51,350 bases of DNA from IMG/VR virus record IMGVR_UViG_2690315831_000003; one strand, 5' to 3'. Position numbers and translations under genes: made by a program. Below the pieces are notes generated by a model that was not told the DNA's origin, searched no databases, and saw only the letters and a program-made list of their open reading frames with translations. Below, piece by piece: positions 1 to 50,610 of this stretch. How positions within the stretch are numbered: the first letter of the stretch is position 1; each line of letters opens with the position of its first letter. This DNA comes from a virus (taxonomy: Duplodnaviria; Heunggongvirae; Uroviricota; Caudoviricetes).

Positions 1-1131
1 TCAAATGACCAGTTTTTTCCACTCTTTACCGCGTACATCGTTGTAAATATCGGTCATTTTTTGATTCGAATGACCCAGCAAAATTTGGGTATCAATTCCC
101 TGCTCCCTGAACAATCGCTCTGATAAAGATCTCTGCTCATGGAAAGAGGGTGGAGTGCCATTAGCGCGCCAGTTGTAATCCACAGAATCCCGGGCTTTTT
201 TAAATGCAACTGTCAACGTTGCTGGCTTAACCATCCCGCCGCGCTTAGCTGTCCCTTTAGCATGATGGTGGTGCAATAACCACGGACTAAGAACGCAATC
301 GCGACAGGATGACACTACATCATCCAGGGTGAGATTTAATTTATCGCAACGCAGAGCCAGAGGGATGGCAATCCGGGTTCCTGTTTTTTGCTGTTCGACA
401 TGAAGATAACCATCCCTGATATCCGAAAATTTCATTTTGCAAATATCTGAAAGGCGCTGGCCTGTCATCAGCGCCAGCAGCATACCACGTTGTAAAAAGT
501 AACCATCCTTTTCCGCTGCATTATAAATCATCATCCACTCATCAAAGGTCAGTCGTTGCCGTGATATCCGTACCTGTGGTTTTTTTGCCGATTCTGCAGG
601 GTTAAAGCCTGGCGAGACATCGCCCGTTTGCTGGGCCTCCCGGAAAACATCAATCAGTACTTTCCTGAAAATTTGTCCCATTCTGTTATGTCCTTTTGCC
701 TTGTAATCTTCCAGCACCGATACCACATCTTTTACGGTTATGGCATCTAATGGTCTGGTACCAAAACGTTCATCAAATACCCTGAGAGGGGATGCTTTCT
801 GTTTCAGTGTGTTGAGTTTGATCTCTCCGTTTTCATATCTTTCCTGTTGAATTTTTCGGTAACTATTCAGAAAAACAGAAACGGTTGATGAACCACCGGT
901 ATCACGAATAATTTTCTCCTGCAGAGTGAGCATTTGTTCCATTTGTTGCCTGGCAAGACGGCTGTTCGCTTCTGCTGCAATAGCTTCTGCCTGTTTCTGG
1001 TCAATACTGCCGAGCCCGTGATTTTTTCCTGTTATGGGATGCCTGTAACGCCAGTAAACTTTGTTATTTCTTTTGTCAAAATACGGAGATAATCCCGGAA
1101 CTTCAGTTTTATATTTTCGTGGGCGCGCCAT
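1..1131 (-). CDS. int: Tyrosine-type site-specific integrase
   Basis: 376-aa ORF ending exactly at window start; position next to an excisionase-like gene; typical phage integrase length and basic N-terminal arm. Confidence 0.85.
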   Translation of the reverse strand: MARPRKYKTEVPGLSPYFDKRNNKVYWRYRHPITGKNHGLGSIDQKQAEAIAAEANSRLARQQMEQMLTLQEKIIRDTGGSSTVSVFLNSYRKIQQERYENGEIKLNTLKQKASPLRVFDERFGTRPLDAITVKDVVSVLEDYKAKGHNRMGQIFRKVLIDVFREAQQTGDVSPGFNPAESAKKPQVRISRQRLTFDEWMMIYNAAEKDGYFLQRGMLLALMTGQRLSDICKMKFSDIRDGYLHVEQQKTGTRIAIPLALRCDKLNLTLDDVVSSCRDCVLSPWLLHHHHAKGTAKRGGMVKPATLTVAFKKARDSVDYNWRANGTPPSFHEQRSLSERLFREQGIDTQILLGHSNQKMTDIYNDVRGKEWKKLVI

Positions 1132-11393: not shown

Positions 11394-11603
11394 AAACGGT
11401 TTGCGGGGAAAGAAGAGTTAAGTAGAATTGCTGCGGGTGCTTGAGGCTGTCTGCCTCGGGCATGCCGCCGTAAGGCAGACAGAGAAAAGCCCCAGTTAAC
11501 ATTACGCGTCTTGCAGGACGCTTAACATTAATCTGAGGCCCAATCTATGCTTCACAAACGTAGGTTAGCCTCTTACGTGCCGAAAGGCAAGGAGAAGCAG
11601 GCT

Positions 11604-11759
11604 ATGAAGCAGCAAAAGGCGATGTTAATCGCCCTGATCGTCATCTGTATTACCGTTGTTGTGACGGCACTGGTAACGAGGAAAGACCTCTGCGAGGTAC
11701 GAATCCGAACCGGCCAGACGGAGGTCGCTGTCTTCGTAGACTACGAATCTGAGAAGTAA
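11604..11759 (+). CDS. hokD: Hok/Gef-family type I toxin (HokD/RelF-like)
   Basis: 51-aa MKQQKAMLIALIVICITVVVTALVTRKDLCEVRIRTGQTEVAVFVDYESEK nearly matches recalled HokD/RelF; structured 5' leader with 10-bp hairpin and 3' fold-back hairpin GCGAGGGAgaaaTCCCTCGC. Confidence 0.85.
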   Translation: MKQQKAMLIALIVICITVVVTALVTRKDLCEVRIRTGQTEVAVFVDYESEK

Positions 11760-11927
11760 GAGTGACCAAGCGAGGGAGAAATCCCTCGCCACCTCTGATG
11801 TGTCAGGCATCCTCAACGCACCCGCACTTACCCCGTTTCGGCAGACTTTGTTTTTTCCTGGCATTCTGGTTTACAATTCGCACGTCAGCCTGAACAACTG
11901 GCACCTGCTGCGTCACCGGAGAACCCG

Positions 11928-16871: not shown

Positions 16872-16947
16872 GGCCCTTTAGCTCAGTGGTGAGAGCGAGC
16901 GACTCATAATCGCCAGGTCGCTGGTTCAAATCCAGCAAGGGCCACCA
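16872..16947 (+). tRNA. tRNA with CAU anticodon (Ile2/ileX-like or Met)
   Basis: Cloverleaf folded by hand: acceptor GGCCCTT/AAGGGCC, D-arm GCTC-AGTGGTGA-GAGC, anticodon loop CTCATAA, T-loop TTCAAAT, 3' CCA. Confidence 0.85.
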
Positions 16948-16956
16948 TATCACATA

Positions 16957-17033
16957 CCGCCATTAGCTCATCGGGATAGAGCGCCAGCCTTCGAAGCTGG
17001 CTGCGCGGGGTTCGAGTCCTCGATGGCGGTCCA
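16957..17033 (+). tRNA. tRNA-Arg (UCG anticodon)
   Basis: Acceptor CCGCCAT/ATGGCGG, anticodon stem CCAGC/GCTGG with loop CTTCGAA, T-loop TTCGAGT, 3' CCA; unusual C1-G72. Confidence 0.75.
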
Positions 17034-17311
17034 TTATCTGCATTATGCGTTGTTGGTTCTGATGAGTGAATCATTGTCTTTTGAGCAACAGGCTATCATA
17101 TAAGATAGCCTCAGACTTCCTTGTTTATTCTCGCCGGATGCTTCGTAGATATTTGCAGGCATCTGTATGCAGGGGTATTATTGCGGCATATATCATCCGG
17201 AAAAATAAAAACTACATGCTGATCCGGAGATGATAGTTACAAGTCCTCCCGGATCCCGCATATTTACTATATTTTATAGATAATTGTTCTTGTTAATATG
17301 GAGATGGATAA

Positions 17312-17740
17312 ATGTATTGCCGTGCTGTACCGGTTCTTGTTTTGATATTAGCCAGTCTGACAACTGGCTGCACAAAAGATGTATCGACAAATAATTATGA
17401 TGCTTCTCTGTATCACTCAGATAAATTAATAAAGTCGCAAAATTTGAGCTCATCGGAACGTACCCCTGATGCCAGTGAAGAAATCCGGCAGTATGCCATT
17501 CAGGTCAGGAAAGCCATAGAAGAACAGTTAAAGGATGCGAGTAAGTATTCAGGAAAAGAGTGTTCACTGAGAATGTATATGGCCCCGAATGGTCTTCTGC
17601 TACAGGTTAAAAGAGAAAGCGGTGATCCCGATTTATGTCGTGAAGCGATGAATGCAGTAAAGAATGCTGATATACCATCACCACCGTCTTCAGGAGTATA
17701 TAAAGCATTTAGAAATGGCGTGCTGGATTTTAAACTCTGA
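17312..17740 (+). CDS. Lipoprotein with TolA C-terminal (domain III)-like domain
   Basis: Signal peptide plus lipobox LTTGC; C-terminal SKYSGKECSLRMYMAPNGLLLQVKRESGDPDLCREAMNAVKNADIPSPPSSGVYKAFRNGVLDFKL parallels recalled E. coli TolA III; AT-rich context. Confidence 0.7.
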   Translation: MYCRAVPVLVLILASLTTGCTKDVSTNNYDASLYHSDKLIKSQNLSSSERTPDASEEIRQYAIQVRKAIEEQLKDASKYSGKECSLRMYMAPNGLLLQVKRESGDPDLCREAMNAVKNADIPSPPSSGVYKAFRNGVLDFKL

Positions 17741-17877
17741 CAGGGGGAGAAGATTTTCTCCTGTCCTGATGATTTTGGGGCGCTGGAAAGATATTGTGCT
17801 GTGAAGTGTTAAATCCCTCACAATTCAGTAAGTTGACAGTTGCCTGTCAGACTGAGCATTTGTTAAAAAAATTTCGC

Positions 17878-18053
17878 ATGGTGAATCCCCCTGTGCGGAG
17901 GGGCGACTGGTGAACGGTATGATCTCTTTGATGATCGTAAGCGAGAATACGCGGGTTTGGTGTCACCGGGCTGAACTCACCGGGAGGCACCCGGCACCAT
18001 GCTCATGGTGATACAGAAATGCGGCTTCAGCCCCTCTCCGGAGGGGCTTTCTT
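17878..18053 (+). ncRNA. Putative sRNA, repeat unit A
   Basis: Promoter TTGCCT (17840-17845) / TAAAAA (17864-17869); terminator GCCCCTCTCCGGAGGGGC + T-run at 18030-18052; ORFs across the unit not conserved. Confidence 0.4.
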
Positions 18054-18060
18054 ATGGACA

Positions 18061-18128
18061 AAAAAAGCCCGCGCTGGGAGACGCGGGCGGCAAGGAATAA
18101 ACAATAAAACGTGAAGTAATACTTCAAC
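18061..18128 (-). ncRNA. Putative minus-strand sRNA, copy 1
   Basis: Minus strand: -35 TTGCGC, 17 nt, -10 TATTAT, then a ~70-nt transcript with hairpin GAAGTAtTACTTC and terminator GCCCGCG...CGCGGGC + T7. Confidence 0.4.
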
Positions 18129-18210
18129 TGGCGAATAATACCCTACAGTAATCACTCTGCGCAATAGCGTGGCCTTTTTCGAATTGCGGGCTGTAGTCTC
18201 CCTTCTGCCG

Positions 18211-18372
18211 GGTGTCCTGGTTGCAGATTTCTTCATGTGGTAGGGTTCGGCAGTTAAAGCAGCGATGGCGCTGGGGCGTCGTGCAACTGGCGTTGAGCTG
18301 GATACCGGGCGTTTTGAACAGACTGCGCAGGAAATCAGGGATGTATTTAGCGGGAGCGGTTTGCAGAAGTAA
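18211..18372 (+). pseudogene. Duplicated 3' fragment of the methyltransferase gene
   Basis: About 160 bp homologous to 16679-16831 (MTase C-terminus), with an in-frame stop and no start. Confidence 0.6.
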
Positions 18373-18435
18373 TCTCCCAAAATGCCATTTTTGGAATATA
18401 CTGGTATTAAGTCTTTTTGCTAAGGTTAATTCAAA

Positions 18436-19161
18436 ATGGATGTTGCCTGCTCTGTGGTCCTGATTCGCTATCCGATAGATATTTTTCTTGAAAAAGAAAA
18501 AGTTTCACTCGATGCCGGAAGTGTTATGCTTGTTGCCAGAAATATAAGAGGGCTTTTCTGTGCTTATGCCGACAGAGTGAAAATGGCAGATATAAGTAAC
18601 AGCGTCGTCAATCAGTATCTGGAAAGGGAGTGTGAACTGACGGAGTATACACCGACAAAAATGCCTCTTTATTTGATGTCTGATATTTACAATACGGAAC
18701 TGGCGGAGGCTTTAATAACCCGGCATAGTGAATCCAGTGATACTTTGAAGGATTTCTCTGTTATAACCGCATTTTCATGTATCTCCTTATTTGCAACAGA
18801 CAGACGTCTGCCATTATTTTTGTCCGGTGCTGTAAATAATATCAGCTGTAAAGTAAGGGCTATAATTCAGACCGACATATCGGCAGGCTGGATGCTTGGT
18901 GTGATTGCATTACAATTGCATATGAGCGAAAGCTTGTTGAAGCGAAAACTTAAGGATGAAGGTTATAGCTTTAGTCGGTTGTTGCTGGAGGAGCGAATGC
19001 GTGTTGCTGTTAATCTTGTATGTTTCCAGCGAGAGTGTGGACAAGCGATAGCGGAAAAATGTGGTTACTCAAGTAAGTCCTACTTCATTTCTGTATTTCA
19101 CCAGTATTATGGTGCACCACCTGAGAGCTATGCATATTTGCAGAAAGCAGACGTTATCTGA
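18436..19161 (+). CDS. AraC/XylS-family transcriptional regulator (cargo)
   Basis: 241 aa; C-terminal dual-HTH AraC signature region; AT-rich locus. Confidence 0.7.
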   Translation: MDVACSVVLIRYPIDIFLEKEKVSLDAGSVMLVARNIRGLFCAYADRVKMADISNSVVNQYLERECELTEYTPTKMPLYLMSDIYNTELAEALITRHSESSDTLKDFSVITAFSCISLFATDRRLPLFLSGAVNNISCKVRAIIQTDISAGWMLGVIALQLHMSESLLKRKLKDEGYSFSRLLLEERMRVAVNLVCFQRECGQAIAEKCGYSSKSYFISVFHQYYGAPPESYAYLQKADVI

Positions 19162-19250
19162 TGTTTTTTCATCAGGCATATATTGATTGACTGTATTAGA
19201 TATAGTCTGAATGTGTTCAGCATAAAAAGTTATAATCATTTGGTGTTTGC

Positions 19251-19529
19251 GTGAATATTGATGAGAAAATCAGATGTAGCCAACTGTTACAGCGTATTGA
19301 AGCCGTCAATGTGGAACGAACAAAGGTCTTCAGTCGTCTGACAGTTTTATTTTGTACCCCTGATCGACGTTCAGGTCAGGAGATGGTTCTTCTGGATGTA
19401 GATGCACTTCGGAACGTCTGTGAGGAGTTCACCGCGGCTAATTCGGAGTTACTGAGTCTTGTTCAGGAGTACAACAGAATTGCAGGTAGTAACGGTTTTG
19501 ATGAAATCAAAATTATATCCCGTGGATAA
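19251..19529 (+). CDS. Hypothetical protein downstream of the AraC-like regulator
   Basis: 92-aa ORF with GTG start and weak RBS. Confidence 0.35.
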   Translation: MNIDEKIRCSQLLQRIEAVNVERTKVFSRLTVLFCTPDRRSGQEMVLLDVDALRNVCEEFTAANSELLSLVQEYNRIAGSNGFDEIKIISRG

Positions 19530-19852
19530 AACATATCCTGTATATTTATGTTGTTACATACAGGCGCTTTTAGTATCTGCCGCACGGCAGTTGTACTTCA
19601 GAATAAGATGCTTTTGTGACTGGTGGTGTTGTATCTGGGGTTAGCCAGTAGGCAGGTTCAGAGAGTCCGGTGGTAATTATGTGTATGCAGTGGTTGTTGC
19701 TGTACCGTGGGCAAGTTCTGGAACTGGCTTCGTCCATTGTAGATGATTGTTAGCTGGATATCAGTTACCTCATGGAAATGTTAAATGACTCACAATTCGG
19801 TTGATGGGCTATTGTCTGATCGATGGAAGTCTTGTAAAAACGAGCCAGCATA

Positions 19853-20012
19853 GTGAATCCCCCTGTGCGGAGGGGCGTCTGACATGGTCTCCATAGCGAT
19901 GGTCACAATACGCAGATTCAGTAGTCAGGCTGAATCTACCGGGAGGCACCCGGCACTATGCTGCTTATGGTGTATACATAGCGATCGGCCCCTCTCCGGA
20001 GGGGCTTTTTTT
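19853..20012 (+). ncRNA. Putative sRNA, repeat unit B
   Basis: Same conserved 5' and 3' blocks, divergent middle; terminator 19988-20012. Confidence 0.4.
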
Positions 20013-20111
20013 GTGCGGGAAAAGGCTGTGTTGTTAAGTGTTAAATTCCTCACAGTTCAGATGGTTGATGCTTGCCTGTCTGAGGGGGAGTTGTTAAAAA
20101 AGTTCTGCATG

Positions 20112-20282
20112 GTGAATCCCCCTGTGCGGAGGGGCGACTGGTGTGATTTGCATCTTTTCTGTTGTAGGCAATGCAAACGCGGGTTCAGGGACACCAGACT
20201 GGACTCACCGGGAGGCACCCGGCACCATGTTCATGATGATACAGATACGCAGTGTCAGCCCCTCTCCTGAGGGGCTTTTTTA
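20112..20282 (+). ncRNA. Putative sRNA, repeat unit C
   Basis: Near-identical to unit A over the first ~35 nt and the 3' hairpins; terminator 20258-20282. Confidence 0.4.
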
Positions 20283-20381
20283 TGCAGGAAAAACGCTGTG
20301 TTGTGAAATGTTAAATTCCTCACAGTTCAGATGGTTGATGCTTGCCTGTCTTACGGGGAGTTGTTAAAAAAGTTCTGCATG

Positions 20382-20544
20382 GTGAATCCCCCTGAGCGGA
20401 GGGGCATATCAGCGCAGGTGTTTCTACTCTATCCTTTCTGTGCGGGTTCAGGTGCTGATACTGAACTCACCGGGAGGCACCCGGCACCATGCAGTATACA
20501 GAGATTAGGCATACATCCAGGCTCCTCATCGCAGGAGCCTTTTT
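20382..20544 (+). ncRNA. Putative sRNA, repeat unit D
   Basis: Conserved 5' box and internal hairpin; different terminator GGCTCCTcatcgcAGGAGCC + T5. Confidence 0.35.
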
Positions 20545-20550
20545 ACATGT

Positions 20551-44261: not shown

Positions 44262-45128
44262 TAAAAAAAATCCCGCAGTGCTCTGTAGCTGCGGGAAGAG
44301 ATACGAAGATTAACTTTAAGGAATTTTTCATTATTCTGGCAGATGAACTGTAACGCAGCGTGATTATGAGCACTACAGTCAGTGTGCGGAAATGTGAATA
44401 AACTCAGAATTTTTATTCACGGGAAGGGAGGGGCCGGATATCGGTGGCAGAGGACAGAAGGCATCATGCGGGTTCAGGGGATAAAAAAATCCCGCAGTAC
44501 TCCGTGCTGCGGGAAGAGAACGATGTTGACTAACCTGAAGGCGTTTTATTTTTATTGACCCGAAGAAACTGTAACCTGCCGGAATGCACTCTGCCACGGA
44601 GAATGACGGAAAATGTGAAGAAAATCAGAGTTTTTATTTATCCCGTACATTCGTCTCTGGCGACAGAGTGGCGTCAGTAATGTCCGTGATACTGAGGGGG
44701 GAATTAAAAAATCTCCCGTAATACACCTGGATATTGACGGGAGAAACGAATAGTCACCTTAAGGAGTAGTTTTGATTATTGCCTGTAATCAGCGGGTGAA
44801 TTGTAACGTATGGTGATTATGAGTGCCACAGGTAATTTGCAGAAATGTGAATAAATTCAGAATTTTTATTCACAGGAAGGGGCTGCGGGATATCGGTGGC
44901 AGAGGACAGAAAATATCAGGCCGGGTTTAAGGGATAAAAAAATCCCGCAGAGTCAGCGGAGCTGCGGGAGAGAACGATGAAGATTAACGTTATGGAGTTA
45001 TTTTTCAGGCATCAAAAAAGTAACGCAGCGTCATTATTGCGGCTACAGGCAATTTGCAGAAATGTGAAGAATTTCAGAAATTTTATTCCGTCATGACACA
45101 GGCACCCTCCGGGGTGCCTGTTGTTTTT
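44262..45128. repeat. About 860-bp non-coding insert between I and J with four degenerate ~215-bp tandem units
   Basis: Each unit has an A-run plus hairpin (CCCGCAG..CTGCGGG; minus-strand intrinsic terminator), a TGTAACG..GTGATTATGAG block and an inverted repeat GTGAATAAA..TTTATTCAC; no ORF. Confidence 0.7.
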
Positions 45129-45171
45129 GGGCATAAACAGATTCAGACATCAGACAGGAGAGGGGGACAGA

Positions 45172-48100
45172 GTGGGTAAAGGGGGCGGCAAGGGGCACAC
45201 ACCGCGTGAGGCGAAGGACAATCTCAAGTCAACGCAGATGATGAGCGTGATTGATGCCATCGGTGAGGGACCGGTGGAAGGTCCGGTGAAGGGACTGCAG
45301 AGTATTCTGGTGAACAAAACCCCGCTGACGGACACGGACGGTAATCCCGTGATACACGGTGTGACCGCCGTCTGGCGTGCCGGGGAGCAGGAGCAGACAC
45401 CGCCGGAAGGCTTTGAGTCCTCCGGGGCAGAAACCGCACTGGGCGTGGAGGTGACGAAGGCAAAGCCGGTGACGCGCACCATCAAGTCAGCGAACATTGA
45501 CCGTCTGCGGGTCACCTTCGGGGTGCAGTCACTGGTGGAGACCAGCTCAAAGGGTGACCGTAATCCCTCTTCTGTCCGGCTGCTGATTCAGCTTGAGCGT
45601 AACGGTAACTGGGTGACGGAGAAGGATGTCACCATTAACGGCAAGACCACCTCGCAGTACCTGACGTCGGTGATTCTGAATAATCTCCCTGAGCGCCCCT
45701 TTAACATCCGGATGGTCAGGGTGACGGCGGACAGTACCACGGACCAGCTGCAGAACAGAACGCTGTGGTCGTCATACACCGAAATCATCGATGTGAAACA
45801 GTGCTACCCGAACACGGCCATTGTGGGGCTGCAGGTGGATGCGGAGCAGTTCGGTGGCCAGCAGATGGTGGTGAACTACCATATCCGCGGCCGCATCATT
45901 CAGGTGCCGTCAAACTATGACCCGGAAAAACGCACCTACAGCGGTATCTGGGACGGGAGTCTGAAACCGGCATACAGCAATAACCCGGCCTGGTGCCTGT
46001 GGGACATGCTGACCCACCCGCGCTACGGCATGGGAAAACGCCTGGGGGCGGCGGATGTGGACAAGTGGGCGCTGTATGCCATCGGGCAGTACTGCGACCA
46101 GACGGTCCCGGATGGTTTCGGGGGCACAGAGCCGCGGATGACTTTCAATGCGTACCTGTCACAGCAGCGTAAGGTGTGGGATGTCCTGGGGGATTTTTGC
46201 TCGGCGATGCGCTGTATGCCGGTATGGAACGGCCAGACGCTGACGTTCGTTCAGGACCGTCCGTCGGATGTGGTGTGGCCGTACACCAACAGCGATGTGG
46301 TGGTGGATGATAACGGCGTGGGGTTCCGCTACAGCTTCAGTGCCCTGAAGGACCGGCACACGGCGGTGGAGGTGAATTACACTGACCCGCAGAACGGCTG
46401 GCAGACCTCCACTGAACTGGTGGAAGACCCGGACGCCATCCTGCGCTACGGGCGCAACCTGCTGAAGATGGATGCGTTCGGCTGTACCAGCCGCGGTCAG
46501 GCCCACCGTGCCGGACTGTGGGTGATAAAGACCGAACTGCTGGAAACGCAGACGGTGGATTTCACGCTCGGGTCACAGGGGCTGCGGCACACGCCCGGTG
46601 ACATCATTGAAATCTGTGATAACGACTATGCCGGGACCCTGACCGGCGGACGCATCCTGTCCATCGATGCCGCCAGCCGCACACTGACGCTGGACCGAGA
46701 GGTGACACTGCCGGAAGCAGGGGCATCGACGGTGAACCTGATTAACGGCAGCGGTAAGCCGGTGCGCGTGGACATCACTGCACACCCCGCCCCGGACCGG
46801 ATACAGGTCAGCGTCCTGCCTGATGGCGTGGAGACATACGGTGTGTGGGGACTCTCCCTGCCGTCACTGCGTCGTCGCCTGTTCCGCTGTGTTTCCATCC
46901 GGGAAAACACGGACGGCACCTTTGCCATCACGGCGGTGCAGCATGTGCCGGAAAAAGAAGCCATTGTGGATAACGGGGCCCGCTTTGAGCCGATGTCCGG
47001 CTCACTGAACAGCGTCATCCCGCCGGCAGTGCAGCACCTCACGGTGGAGGTGAGTGCCTCAGACGGCCAGTATCTGGCGCTGGCGAAATGGGACACGCCG
47101 CGGGTGGTGAAGGGGGTGCGCTTCAGTCTGCGCCTGACCAGCGGAAACGGTGAAAACAGCCGCCTGGTGACCAGCGCCATCACGGCGGACACGGAGCACC
47201 GTTTCAGTGGCCTGCCGCTCGGGGAATACACCCTGACGGTCAGGGCGATAAACAGCTACGGCCAGCAGGGCGAACCTGCCACCACCACATTCCGGATTAA
47301 TGCACCGGCGGCACCGGCCAGCATTGAACTGACGCCGGGCTATTTTCAGATAACGGTGGTCCCGCATCCTGCGGTGTATGACCCGACGGTACAGTATGAA
47401 TTCTGGTTCTCAGAAAAACGCATCACGGACACGGCACAGGTGGAAACCTCTGCCCGTTATCTGGGTACCGGCAGCCAGTGGAGCGTTTCCGGCCCGCACA
47501 TTAAGCCGGGGAAGGATTTCTGGTTTTATGTGCGCAGCGTCAACCTGGTGGGGAAATCTGCGTTTGTGGAGGCCAGCGGGCAGGCCAGCAATGATGGTGA
47601 AGGGTATCTGGAAATTTTCCGTGGGCTGATAGATGAGGCGCTGCTGGGGAAGGCACTGAAAGAGCGTATTGATGCGTCAGCCCTGCGTACTGAGGTCACG
47701 CAACTGGAAGAAGACATCCGCCAGCGACTGGAGACGGATGTTGCGGAAGTGACCCGAAAAATCGGGGAGGCGGAAAACAGCCTCACGCAGCTGGTTGCGA
47801 AAAAGAATGAGGACCAGACGCTGGCCATCGCGCAGGTGAGTCAGCAGGTGGACCGGGTGAGCAGTGAAATCACACAGACAGTCAGCCAGAGCACGGAGGA
47901 AAACGCCAGGCAGATAGCGCAGGTCCGCCAGTACGTGGATGACAAAGGGAGTGAAATCACCTCGACCACGGATAAAAAGCTGGAAGACCAGAGCGCGACC
48001 ATACAGCAGATACAGCAGGTCCAGTCAGACACGAATGATGAGCTGGCAGCGCTGTACATGCTGAAGGTGCAGAAAACGAAAAACGGCATTCCGTATGTTG

Positions 48101-48858
48101 CCGGTATTGGTGCGGGGATTGAGGATGCTGATGGCCAGACGCTGAGCAATATTCTGCTGCAGGCGGACCGTATCGCGATGATTACCCCGGAGAACGGCAA
48201 CACCACGCCGCTGTTTGTGGCACAGGGGAATCAGCTGTTCATGAACGACGTGTTCCTGAAGCGACTGTTTGCGGTGAGTATCACGTCATCCGGCAATCCC
48301 CCGACGTTCTCCCTGACGCCGGAGGGCAGGCTGACGGCCCGCAATGCTGACATCAGCGGACATATCAGTGCGAACTCGGGCACGCTGAATAATGTCGTGA
48401 TAGCGGAGAACTGCACGATAAATGGCACGCTGAAAGCGGAGAACATTATTGGTGATCTGGTGAAATGTGCCGGGGTGGCTTTTCCGGTGGATGGTAGTCA
48501 CCTTGCGAACGGTACACGAACGCTGACGGTGTATGACGATCACAGCTTTGACCGGCAGATTATAATCCCGCCGATAATCTATGTCGGGTCAAAACAGGAA
48601 TCCCGCACCAGTAATGACATCTGGACAGAGTGCTTCCTGCATGTTGATCAGAACGGACGCCGGATTTATTCAGGCAGGTCAGTGGCAGAGCCGGGAATTT
48701 TCAGCGGGATCATCGATATGCCAGCTGGCGGTGGTCATATCACCCTGAGTTTTACCGTGAGCTCACGGCGTCAGAATGACAGTTGGGGCAGTTCACGAAT
48801 CAGTAACCTTCAGGCGATAGTGGTGAAGAAAAACAGCGCGGGGATCAGTATCCGCTGA
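45172..48858 (+). CDS. J: Host specificity / central tail fibre protein J-like
   Basis: GTG 45172 after AGGAGAGGGGG; N-terminus [22 protein letters not shown] matches recalled lambda J start; about 1229 aa. Confidence 0.85.
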
Positions 48859-49056
48859 ACATCGCGCCCCGGGATTGCCGGAAGGAGACAAAAACCGTAC
48901 AGTATGCGCGGGTGCCTTTGGCTGATGGCCGGAGGGAACACCTGAAGGCCGGATGTGAAAAGGCCCCGGACAAAACATTCATGTTTAACCCGAGGCCTGA
49001 CGTTCTTCCTTCAGCAAGAAGAAGGTTAGCGCCTCTCCGTAAAAGGAGCAAGCGTT

Positions 49057-49197
49057 ATGTCGCAAAAACCGTTAAAAACCACCGTGATTTGTATCACGGT
49101 AGTGCTCATTATCTGGATCACCCACACTTCACTGTGCGAGTTCCGGTTCCGGATAGCGGGCGCGGAGATTGCGGCGTTCTTACAGTGTAAGCGGTAA
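49057..49197 (+). CDS. Hok-family type I toxin (second copy, divergent)
   Basis: 46 aa MSQKPLKTTVICITVVLIIWITHTSLCEFRFRIAGAEIAAFLQCKR: single TM plus LCEfR and E-x-AAF hallmarks; AGGAG RBS; overlapping mok-like ORF 48912..49190. Confidence 0.7.
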   Translation: MSQKPLKTTVICITVVLIIWITHTSLCEFRFRIAGAEIAAFLQCKR

Positions 49198-49295
49198 GAA
49201 ACCGTGGCGGGGGAGTGTACCTTCCCCGCCGACCGGTTGCTGAGGGTGATCAGCCGGATGGCACCTTTTTAACATCAATAAATCACAAATTTTAC

Positions 49296-49328
49296 CGCAG
49301 GCCGGGAAACCGGTCCTGCGGTTTTTTT
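49296..49328 (+). terminator. Intrinsic terminator after the hok-like locus
   Basis: CCGCAGGCCGG-gaaa-CCGGTCCTGCGG followed by TTTTTTT. Confidence 0.6.
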
Positions 49329-49341
49329 ATGGAGGAAATCC

Positions 49342-50610
49342 ATGGCAGTCAGAATATCGGGTGTGCTGAAGGACGGGGCCGGTAAGCCGGTACCGAGATG
49401 CACGATAGAGCTGAAAGCGCGACGCACAACGGAGACGGTGATTGTCACCACGGTGGCGTATGGTCAGCCGGGGGAAACCGGCAGTTACAGTATGGATGTT
49501 GAGCCGGGTCTGTACCGGGTGACGCTGAACACGGAAGGGTACGCGCCGTCATATGTGGGTGACATTCTGGTGAAGGCGGAGTCTGCACCGGGAACGCTGA
49601 ATAAATTTCTGATGGACCAGGAGGACGCACAGTATTACCCGAAAGCCCTTGCAGAGCTGGAAGCGGTGGCCGCGGAAATCCTGAAACGTGCGGAAGCGTC
49701 AGCGGCGAGTGCAGAGGAAGCGAAGAAACGGGCAGAGAATGCGCGGGGACCGAAGGGGGATAAGGGAGACACCGGGCCACAGGGTATTCCCGGGCCAAAA
49801 GGCGATACCGGCGAGCGTGGGCCAAAGGGTGAGCGTGGTGAGGCAGGCCCACAGGGGGTACAGGGGCCACGGGGTGAAACCGGACCCGTGGGACCGCAAG
49901 GAGAGGCGGGTATTCAGGGGCCTGCTGGTCCTGCGGGCCCGCGAGGTGAAACCGGAGCCAGAGGCGAAAAAGGAGAGCCGGGAGATCCCGGAGGACCTCC
50001 GGGACCAAAAGGTGACACTGGCCCCAGAGGGGAGCCGGGGCCTCAGGGCCCGGCAGGTCCGAGGGGACCCGCCGGAGAGAGAGGGCCGCAAGGATTGCAG
50101 GGTGTGGCAGGGGAGAGAGGCGATACAGGTCCGGCTGGTCCACAGGGTATACCTGGACCTCCGGGGCCAACAGGTAGCGTCGGTCCTAAGGGGGAAAAAG
50201 GCGAGCCTGGTGATCGAGGTCCACAGGGTGCTACCGGCCCCAGAGGACCACAAGGGGAAAAAGGGGATAAAGGTGACCCCGGCCCGGCAGGCCCTGCCGG
50301 TGAGCGGGGGCCGAAAGGTGATACCGGGCCGACGGGCCCCGCAGGGAAGGATGGCGCAGATTCACAGGCGAACAGAGTGCGTATCAGCGAGAAAACAGAA
50401 GTCACCTCCAGTACAGTCGTTTTCCCCTCTTTTTATGGCGGTGCGCAGGGGGAAAATGCAGCCCCTGATGGCGCTGTGATTCTGAATATCAGGACGGCTC
50501 CGGTATCACTGACGAACGGCAATTTAGGGGCAGCCTGTGTCACCGCTGTCACTTACGGCTTCCTTCAGGTTCATGATGGCAGGCAGTGGGTTACGGTGGA
50601 ACATGAATAA
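49342..50610 (+). CDS. Side tail fibre protein with collagen-like Gly-X-Y repeats
   Basis: 422 aa; N-terminal tail-fibre-like segment; about 200 aa of uninterrupted G-X-Y triplets. Confidence 0.8.

Follow-up and report, generated by a model that had tools for sequence, protein, structure and literature searches.

Background

Genes of the Hok family are enriched in prophages according to the Hok catalogue of Escalera-Maurer et al. (bioRxiv 10.1101/2025.08.07.668861, v2 2026), which, by the account given in the parts of that work drawn on here, deliberately sets aside Mok, Sok and the features of the mRNA. The DNA analysed in the present study, a stretch of 51,350 nucleotides that we call the window, holds one lambdoid prophage, with an integrase (1..1131), an exonuclease, a replication and early region, tRNAs, a terminase, a tape measure and J. 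An earlier note, made from the sequence alone, had read the short interval downstream of J as a second, divergent hok-family locus. The question raised by this interval is whether it holds a complete toxin-antitoxin system of the hok/sok type and, if so, whether such a system would be controlled through an overlapping mok frame as in plasmid R1. We find that it is very probably a self-contained type I toxin-antitoxin cassette of the hok/sok type, a moron that the lambdoid prophage has between J and its side tail-fibre gene. We present below its predicted RNA-level anatomy, and we hypothesize that the mok frame may be dispensable in this group of prophage toxins.

Results

A Hok/Gef-family gene in the lambda lom slot

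The neighbour upstream of the interval is an ORF at 45121..48858 that corresponds to the central tail fibre J (phrog_31), and the neighbour downstream is an ORF at 49342..50610 that corresponds to a tail fibre (phrog_366), the first 130 amino acids of which are 53% identical to lambda Stf/orf-401. Since the gene order in lambda is J, lom, orf-401 and the hok cassette is flanked by J and an Stf-like fibre, it sits in the lambda lom slot, the position that the earlier note had given it. The toxin gene itself is the following.

49057..49197, + strand: hok-family toxin gene, 46 amino acids (Pfam PF01848, PHROG 251, RefSeq name, dN/dS, catalogue peptide)

This ORF begins with ATG and encodes the peptide MSQKPLKTTVICITVVLIIWITHTSLCEFRFRIAGAEIAAFLQCKR, in which an N-terminal hydrophobic stretch (residues 8-22) is joined by the motifs SLCEFR and AEIAAF, so that the hydrophobic helix, LCEFR and AAF that had been read as Hok hallmarks in a 46-amino-acid ORF are all present. 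The profile search that the earlier note had asked for gave a match of 42.2 bits to Pfam HOK_GEF (PF01848; gathering cutoff 22, E=6.1e-11, residues 10-44) and a match to PHROG 251, 'MokW-like host killing', at E=7.5e-21. Judged by its sequence, 49057..49197 encodes a Hok/Gef-family peptide, the profile matches lying far beyond chance. Both NCBIfam models, in contrast, fell far short of their cutoffs for this peptide (37.9 bits against 89 for the HokA equivalog NF007290, and 36.8 bits against 73 for the Hok subfamily model NF007279), and because these two were missed although Pfam and PHROG match, the peptide is best regarded as diverged within the family and not as one of the named chromosomal Hok proteins. 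No PADLOC model matches either Hok of the window. Measured against diverged relatives, the hok frame has a dN/dS of 0.2-0.7.

The positions reported in the catalogue as more than 80% conserved over 1264 Hok peptides (10.1101/2025.08.07.668861) are M1, C16, T18, L30, C31, E32 and E41 in its own numbering, and all seven are found in the 46-amino-acid peptide, as M1, C12, T14, L26, C27, E28 and E37. The exact peptide is itself listed there, as unique sequence 1566 of File S3, and is identical to a catalogued member of Hok cluster 79. According to the same source, the clone LRP163 carries variant 79_1563, which departs from this peptide by the single change T24S; of the 45 constructs tested 42 were toxic, 79_1563 not being among the three exceptions. 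A further close variant, RefSeq WP_000078853.1, carries the name 'Hok/Gef family protein', and RefSeq also annotates this gene downstream of gpJ in prophages of E. coli.

By tblastn the window has two hok genes and no more, one at 11604..11759 and the other at 49057..49197, with 47% identity between them over 34 amino acids. The first belongs to a locus at 11435..~11860 of the same prophage that scores 117.7 bits with the Rfam sok model, and it was the only hok locus returned when the whole window was scanned at the Rfam gathering threshold, the second surfacing in an E-value scan. The earlier note had called two different hok paralogues in one prophage notable; the two copies are there, but the arrangement, while uncommon, has already been quantified, since the catalogue, in the figures available from it, gives one copy for 96.3% of hok-carrying phages, two for 3.5% and three for 0.2% (10.1101/2025.08.07.668861). 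Pairs of both types occur about 33 kb apart (genome coordinates) in strains RM10466 and HY220605, and phage 1720a-02 and the Stx2d prophage of RM10410 have just the copy downstream of J.

Distribution of the locus

Of 5426 complete E. coli genomes, 142 contain the 482-bp segment, and its gene bears the PGAP/RefSeq name 'Hok/Gef family protein' there; the segment is also present in the Stx2 phage 1720a-02 (95% identical), where the gene is annotated 'hypothetical'. Relatives in lambdoid prophages, one Stx2d prophage among them, sit after gpJ, and those in P2-like prophages sit after ogr at the prophage end, sometimes in tandem; others are found in Salmonella and E. albertii. Co-resident hok/sok loci are exemplified by the pair in the window prophage and by these tandem P2-like copies. 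A scan of IMG/VR yielded 303 viral-contig relatives, among which 75 loci, representing 46 distinct mRNAs, were analysed further. A scan of genome contigs gave only five loci, two of them from records labelled Planococcaceae and Vagococcus that look like contamination.

Predicted architecture of the hok mRNA

The elements that we assign to the sense transcript are listed here in the order in which they are discussed; percentages of paired cells refer to the alignment of 12 relatives described below.

48875..48903, + strand: predicted sigma-70 promoter of the hok mRNA, -35 TTGCCG (48875-48880), 17-nt spacer, -10 TACAGT (48898-48903); read from the sequence and recurring in relatives
48910..49327, + strand: predicted full-length hok mRNA, about 418 nt from tac to terminator (Rfam start, minimum free energy fold, relatives)
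48910..48916, + strand: tac-like 5' element GGGUGCC, pairing with fbi (helix 1, paired in 95% of cells, sequence invariant)
49236..49265, + strand: fbi-like 3' element with core GGCACC at 49260-49265, pairing with the 5' GGGUGCC in the minimum free energy fold and in the 12-locus consensus
49035..49048, + strand: Shine-Dalgarno/anti-Shine-Dalgarno hairpin, anti-SD CUCC (49035-49038) with SD GGAG (49045-49048) (helix 8, paired in 94% of cells)
49206..49230, + strand: GC-rich stem-loop GGCGGGGGAG...CUUCCCCGCC just past the hok stop (helix 16, 98% of cells paired, 4 of 9 pairs changed on both sides)
49294..49327, + strand: Rho-independent terminator CCGCAGGCCGG-GAAA-CCGGUCCUGCGG followed by U7, a 12-pair stem with dG -23.9 kcal/mol

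A promoter consensus scan of 48700-49500 called no promoter, neither in the sense direction nor on the minus strand, and the sense promoter was missed because only 8 of its 12 consensus positions match. Both promoters proposed in this study were read by eye from the sequence and are backed by comparison with relatives. For the sense promoter, the pattern ATTGC(C/G)-17-TA(C/G)A(G/T/A)T stands just before GGGTGCC in most of the relatives listed, whether lambdoid, P2-like, from Salmonella or from E. albertii, despite their different flanks. The start of the hok mRNA is predicted at about 48910, and it is from 48910 to 49068 that the Rfam model RF01794 (hok mRNA leader, sense strand) matches over its full length, with 50.3 bits and E=3.5e-10, a score below the gathering score of 59.

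The minimum free energy fold of 48905-49330 has a z-score of -7.4 against shuffled sequences and pairs the 5' end with the 3' end, closing the RNA. The tac/fbi helix that makes this closure is invariant across relatives and thus offers conservation but no covariation. When the RNA is truncated at the 3' side, its 5' end is predicted to refold into a local hairpin of its own. The hok Shine-Dalgarno sequence GGAG lies within AAGGAG at 49043-49048, 8 nt before the ATG. At the far end of the transcript, the strong terminator that had been noticed earlier can be placed at 49294..49327, with 12 pairs, a GAAA loop and seven T.

This architecture recurs among relatives. In the 12 compared, the distance from tac to fbi is 333-357 nt, and in every relative a terminator follows about 20-55 nt from fbi, its sequence varying with the context. 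The consensus structure of the 12-sequence alignment, which spans four genomic contexts, has 96.5% of cells paired. Changes on both sides are seen in 15 of 89 pairs, compared with a mean of 8.9 in shuffled alignments (0 of 500 shuffles reach 15) and with 2-5 for slid partners, the latter control being flattered in that the tested structure was derived from the same 12 sequences. The regulatory RNA elements are conserved, with compensatory changes, over four genomic contexts. Profile searches, homology of the RNA leader and the conserved architecture of the mRNA agree on the second, divergent hok-family locus that the earlier note had proposed.

With its place between J and an stf homologue, a promoter-like site (predicted) on one side and a terminator on the other, and a position after ogr in P2-like prophages elsewhere, the cassette appears to fit the description of a phage moron, that is, an insert between conserved late genes with its own predicted promoter and terminator. 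Searches of the main text of the Hok catalogue (10.1101/2025.08.07.668861) brought up no discussion of the position between J and stf.

A predicted Sok-like antisense RNA and its hypervariable target

On the opposite strand, and in the leader that it would face, we assign the following.

48955..49017, - strand: predicted Sok-like antisense RNA of about 60 nt, beginning with a 5' tail of 19 unpaired nt that is followed by a GC-rich hairpin and then a U tail (minus-strand fold)
49023..49051, - strand: predicted promoter of the Sok-like RNA, -35 TTGCTC (49051 down to 49046), 17-nt spacer, -10 TAACCT (49028 down to 49023); read from the sequence
48962..48997, no strand assigned: hairpin GGCCCCGG...CCGAGGCC, predicted on the minus strand to be the hairpin that ends the Sok-like RNA, with UUUU (48961 down to 48958) after it (helix 5)
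48993..49035, + strand: Sok-target (sokT) hairpin with a conserved lower stem AGGCCUGAC/GUUAGC.GCCU and a hypervariable upper stem and loop at 49000-49021 (Rfam alignment, variant folds)

The ends of the Sok-like RNA are those implied by the positions of its promoter and terminator. For comparison with plasmid R1 hok/sok we used an R1-type IncFII plasmid locus (L009), and the minus-strand TTGCTC-17-TAACCT occupies the same position as TTGCGC-17-TATCCT in that locus. In 27 leaders AGGTTA is nearly invariant, and two relatives have AGGATA (TATCCT on the minus strand), a conservation of the minus-strand -10 element that is confounded by the overlap of this region with the hok Shine-Dalgarno sequence. 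The outer pairs of the hairpin at 48962..48997 are invariant in 12 of 12 relatives, and in the minus-strand fold this hairpin and its U tail reproduce the layout of the antisense RNA in the R1-type locus. In the Rfam alignment, 48993..49035 corresponds to hairpin three of the model.

Most of the difference between near-identical loci falls in about 22 nt, window positions 49000-49021, which form the upper stem and loop of the very hairpin that the 5' tail of the predicted Sok RNA would attack. In a set of 11 near-identical loci the leader varies in 30 columns, 17 of them within the 26 columns of this cassette; lambdoid-type loci have at least five versions of it, and a common one, present in phage 1720a-02, contains an in-frame TAA that closes the 'mok' frame. 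RNAalifold applied to the 27-leader alignment missed two variable hairpins, since MAFFT misaligns the cassette, and the variants were folded singly instead; all 16 of the distinct variants that could be extracted still fold into the target hairpin, with different upper stems. Their loops retain a pyrimidine-U-N-purine tetranucleotide (UUCA, CUAA, UUGA), reportedly the U-turn motif of antisense target loops described by Franch et al. in 1999. To us the pattern of the cassette suggests, and at the sequence level fits, a diversification of antisense specificity.

The overlapping mok-like frame

A 92-amino-acid ORF with a GTG start (48912..49190, + strand) overlaps hok in the +2 frame, and within it lies the following shorter ORF.

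48981..49190, + strand: 69-codon ORF from the internal ATG at 48981, +2 frame, contained in the 92-amino-acid ORF and mok-like in position

Were this a canonical, mok-dependent hok/sok locus, the 69-codon ORF would be a true mok, and its translation, blocked by Sok, would open the hok Shine-Dalgarno sequence as in R1. There is some likeness to commend the idea: the ORF stops 7 nt short of the end of the hok stop codon, much as the +2 frame of the R1-type locus runs open through hok and stops 4 nt ahead of the stop codon of hok, and the predicted Sok-like RNA would cover the ATG at 48981. We nevertheless consider it unlikely, on account of the distribution of the frame and of the start codon itself. 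A long upstream ORF that reads into hok is found in only about 11 distinct sequences of the 46 distinct mRNAs from 75 related loci; two relatives with the identical Hok peptide (L016 and L017) have no upstream ORF reading into hok, and in phage 1720a-02, 95% identical, as well as in three other lambdoid copies and one of three P2-type copies, no ORF with an upstream start gets to within 25 nt of where hok begins. In the remaining two P2-type copies there is only a 14-codon TTG ORF starting at -20, which is too close to the hok Shine-Dalgarno sequence for a Sok-controlled mok, and a Salmonella copy, read by eye, has no upstream ORF either. The ATG at 48981 lacks a Shine-Dalgarno sequence (upstream CCCGGACAAAACATTC) and lies at -76 in a hairpin loop, whereas in both canonical loci examined, the first locus of the window and the R1-type plasmid locus, mok begins with an ATG at -57, which belongs to the 5' arm of the target hairpin; at that canonical position the second locus has no start codon. 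Pfam and NCBIfam searches found no family for the 92- or 69-amino-acid ORF, the only match, to CsiV at E=0.057, being noise.

Two substitutes for such a start were considered and rejected. The position aligned to the ATG at 48981 is ATG, TTG, CTG or ACG in relatives, which could be taken for a conserved near-cognate start, but the TG belongs to a stem and its pairing explains the pattern. A 7-codon TTG ORF that crosses the anti-Shine-Dalgarno sequence occurs in a few alleles only, and the corresponding frame of the window has no start codon.

Whether the mok frame is open or closed depends on the version of the hypervariable cassette of about 22 nt, which differs from allele to allele. The overlapping ORF is most simply seen as a by-product of the leader allele that happens to be present, and it is probably not a gene. 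Of the 'mok-like' arrangement described earlier, the presence of the 92-amino-acid ORF and its +2 overlap stand, and the reading of it as mok finds no support in the comparison.

Discussion

A probable type I cassette rather than a relic

Several chromosomal hok loci of E. coli K-12 are decaying and non-functional, and the second locus of the window might be a relic of the same kind whose toxin is no longer expressed. The lack of a conserved mok and the weak matches of both promoters to the consensus could be taken in that sense, as could a relative in NCTC9112 (L007) in which deletions destroy the hok ORF. We hold this to be quite improbable, however, considering that the 46-codon ORF is intact in all but one of 81 gene copies from 79 viral loci, that its dN/dS is below 1, that the RNA elements are conserved with compensatory changes in four genomic contexts, and that the variant one residue away is counted as toxic in the construct set of the catalogue (10.1101/2025.08.07.668861). 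A chance ORF in the spacer between J and the tail fibre gene, for which its small size and nothing more would speak, has a practically negligible probability against profile matches in Pfam (6e-11), PHROG (7.5e-21) and Rfam (3.5e-10) and the occurrence of the segment in 142 E. coli genomes and 303 viral-contig relatives.

Proposed mechanism

For the preferred reading, a self-contained type I cassette, the following course of events may be envisaged. A weak sigma-70 promoter, TTGCCG-17-TACAGT, would start an mRNA of about 420 nt at about 48910. In the full-length RNA, as the folding model has it, the 5' GGGUGCC would pair with the 3' GGCACC to form the tac/fbi closure, and the hok Shine-Dalgarno sequence would be paired to the CUCC upstream of it. 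From the minus strand, the convergent promoter TTGCTC-17-TAACCT would make a Sok-like RNA of about 60 nt, the free 19-nt 5' tail of which is predicted to be complementary to the loop and upper stem of the conserved leader hairpin. By analogy with plasmid R1 hok/sok and with hokW-sokW, the full-length mRNA should be inert, slow trimming from the 3' end would take off fbi and let the 5' end refold, and the unstable Sok-like RNA would bind the trimmed RNA and bring about its destruction, in part via RNase III. Once the Sok-like RNA had decayed, the trimmed RNA could, on the same analogy, be translated into the 46-amino-acid peptide, which would insert into the inner membrane and kill or arrest the cell. 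The benefit to the prophage may lie in its retention, in assistance to lysis following induction, an effect demonstrated for hokW-sokW, in the exclusion of other phages, or in more than one of these.

One step of the R1 scheme, its translational coupling, is not simply transferable, because the subfamily has no conserved mok. It is quite possible, although we hold the idea with rather more doubt than confidence, that the prophage Hok subfamily ending in AAFLQCK works without mok, the Sok-like RNA silencing hok in some other way (decay triggered by the duplex, or occlusion of a ribosome-loading site), and that the cassette of about 22 nt is an exchangeable specificity element which prevents cross-regulation of co-resident loci.

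As a find, the locus is an ordinary one and is already known: it is annotated in RefSeq, belongs to a PHROG family, and its exact peptide is catalogued. The value for annotation is small, a near-identical variant having already been reported as toxic. What is added here is the anatomy at the RNA level, the non-conservation of the mok frame in this subfamily and the hypervariable Sok-target cassette. Should the lack of a conserved mok and the swappable cassette be borne out experimentally, they would restrict the extent to which the hok/sok mechanism of R1 applies generally, and prophages of the Shiga-toxin type would then provide a simple setting in which to study the antisense specificity of co-resident type I toxin-antitoxin loci.

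Comparison with known systems

The closest mechanistic model is hok/sok of plasmid R1. The R1-type locus and the second locus of the window share a toxin of about 50 amino acids with an LCE core, a tac/fbi closure of an mRNA of about 390-420 nt, a terminator right after fbi, a Shine-Dalgarno/anti-Shine-Dalgarno hairpin and, by prediction in the window, a convergent antisense promoter at the same position and an antisense RNA composed of a free 5' tail and a hairpin. They differ in the toxin, R1 Hok having 52 residues to the 46 of the window toxin and about 39% identity over 33 amino acids, in the replicon, a plasmid as opposed to the late region of a prophage, and in the lack, in the window, of a start codon at -57 and of a conserved mok.

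A prophage-borne type I system is provided by hokW-sokW of prophage Sp5, which is functional and, upon induction, promotes lysis and the release of phage; its antitoxin acts on the 5' UTR in a partly RNase III- and Hfq-dependent manner (PMC8621323). The second locus of the window is likewise a prophage-borne locus of the hok/sok type, its toxin having 46 amino acids compared with the 51 of HokW. The first locus of the window, 11435..11860, looks like a relative of hokW-sokW; its Hok has 51 amino acids and, going by the entries of the catalogue available to us, is two residues away from entry 35_712 in cluster 35, which also holds HokD. That locus lies in the early and replication region and has a canonical in-frame mok start at -57, whereas the second lies after J and lacks that start.

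Among the named chromosomal proteins, HokA of E. coli K-12 has the best-scoring NCBIfam model, NF007290, and since its 37.9 bits lie far below the equivalog cutoff of 89 the 46-amino-acid peptide is not HokA. The two have in common what we take to be a shared C-terminal AAFL-C-K motif. With regard to position, the cassette resembles lambda lom and the other morons of the gap between J and stf, which use the same slot of the late operon, and it would bring its own promoter and terminator, as predicted here. Lom is an outer-membrane protein unrelated to Hok; the slot between J and stf carries lom as its cargo in lambda and a toxin-antitoxin cassette, on the reading preferred here, in the window prophage.

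The first hok locus and the frame of mok

The first of the two hok loci in the window is the following:

11435-11860: first hok locus, encoding a 51-aa Hok peptide

This peptide is two residues apart from catalogue entry 35_712, whose cluster 35 also includes HokD. The canonical upstream ATG lies at 11547, that is, at position -57 relative to the hok start and in the same frame as hok, such that the 'Mok' of this locus is a 70-aa product consisting of Hok with an N-terminal extension. The target hairpin, the leader hairpin that Sok would attack, differs in sequence between the first locus and the second, and on the strength of this comparison cross-regulation between the two looks unlikely.

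The mok of classical R1 is read in the +2 frame. In the R1-type locus of the IncFII plasmid pMTY1886 (L009, 344-559), in contrast, the ATG upstream of hok lies at -57 and shares the hok frame, with no start codon present in the +2 frame, and we therefore suggest that the frame of mok may be variable even among canonical hok loci.

Surroundings and other copies of the second hok locus

A second small variable patch is found at 48954-48959, right next to where the Sok-like RNA is predicted to end, and reads ATGTGA in the window as opposed to AAAGACG in some near-identical loci. On the 3' side of the second hok, the tail-fibre gene (49342-50610) contains a long collagen-like Gly-X-Y repeat region, and this repeat region also gives rise to several spurious long ORFs on the two strands.

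Other elements carry the Hok subfamily of the second locus in tandem: the P2-like prophage of STEC17-183 has two copies downstream of ogr (L005, 2680-3291), and a single IMG/VR contig has three (L048). E. coli NCTC9112 carries a degenerate copy of the cassette, also in the slot between J and stf (L007, 3001-3360), in which deletions have removed part of the hok ORF as well as the region from mid-hok to fbi. Two further hok loci of enterobacterial appearance, with P2-type flanks, come from records labelled as a Planococcaceae MAG and as Vagococcus sp. (L010 and L011), both of which are probably contaminating contigs.

The stx-equivalent region

The region used for stx by related phages is occupied in the window by copies of the STnc100 sRNA family, and the features considered here are:

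16872-17030: two tRNA genes, a short way upstream of the STnc100 copies
17312..17740 (within 17054-17818): ORF of 142 aa, phrog_5772, unknown function
17847-20550 (+): four copies of STnc100 (RF02076), scoring 119-172 bits over a 2.7 kb span

No Shiga-toxin gene of at least 120 aa was found at the stx2-equivalent position of the window (17054-17818). Where the related Stx2 phage 1720a-02 and the Stx2d prophage of strain RM10410 have stx2, the window instead has the phrog_5772 ORF.
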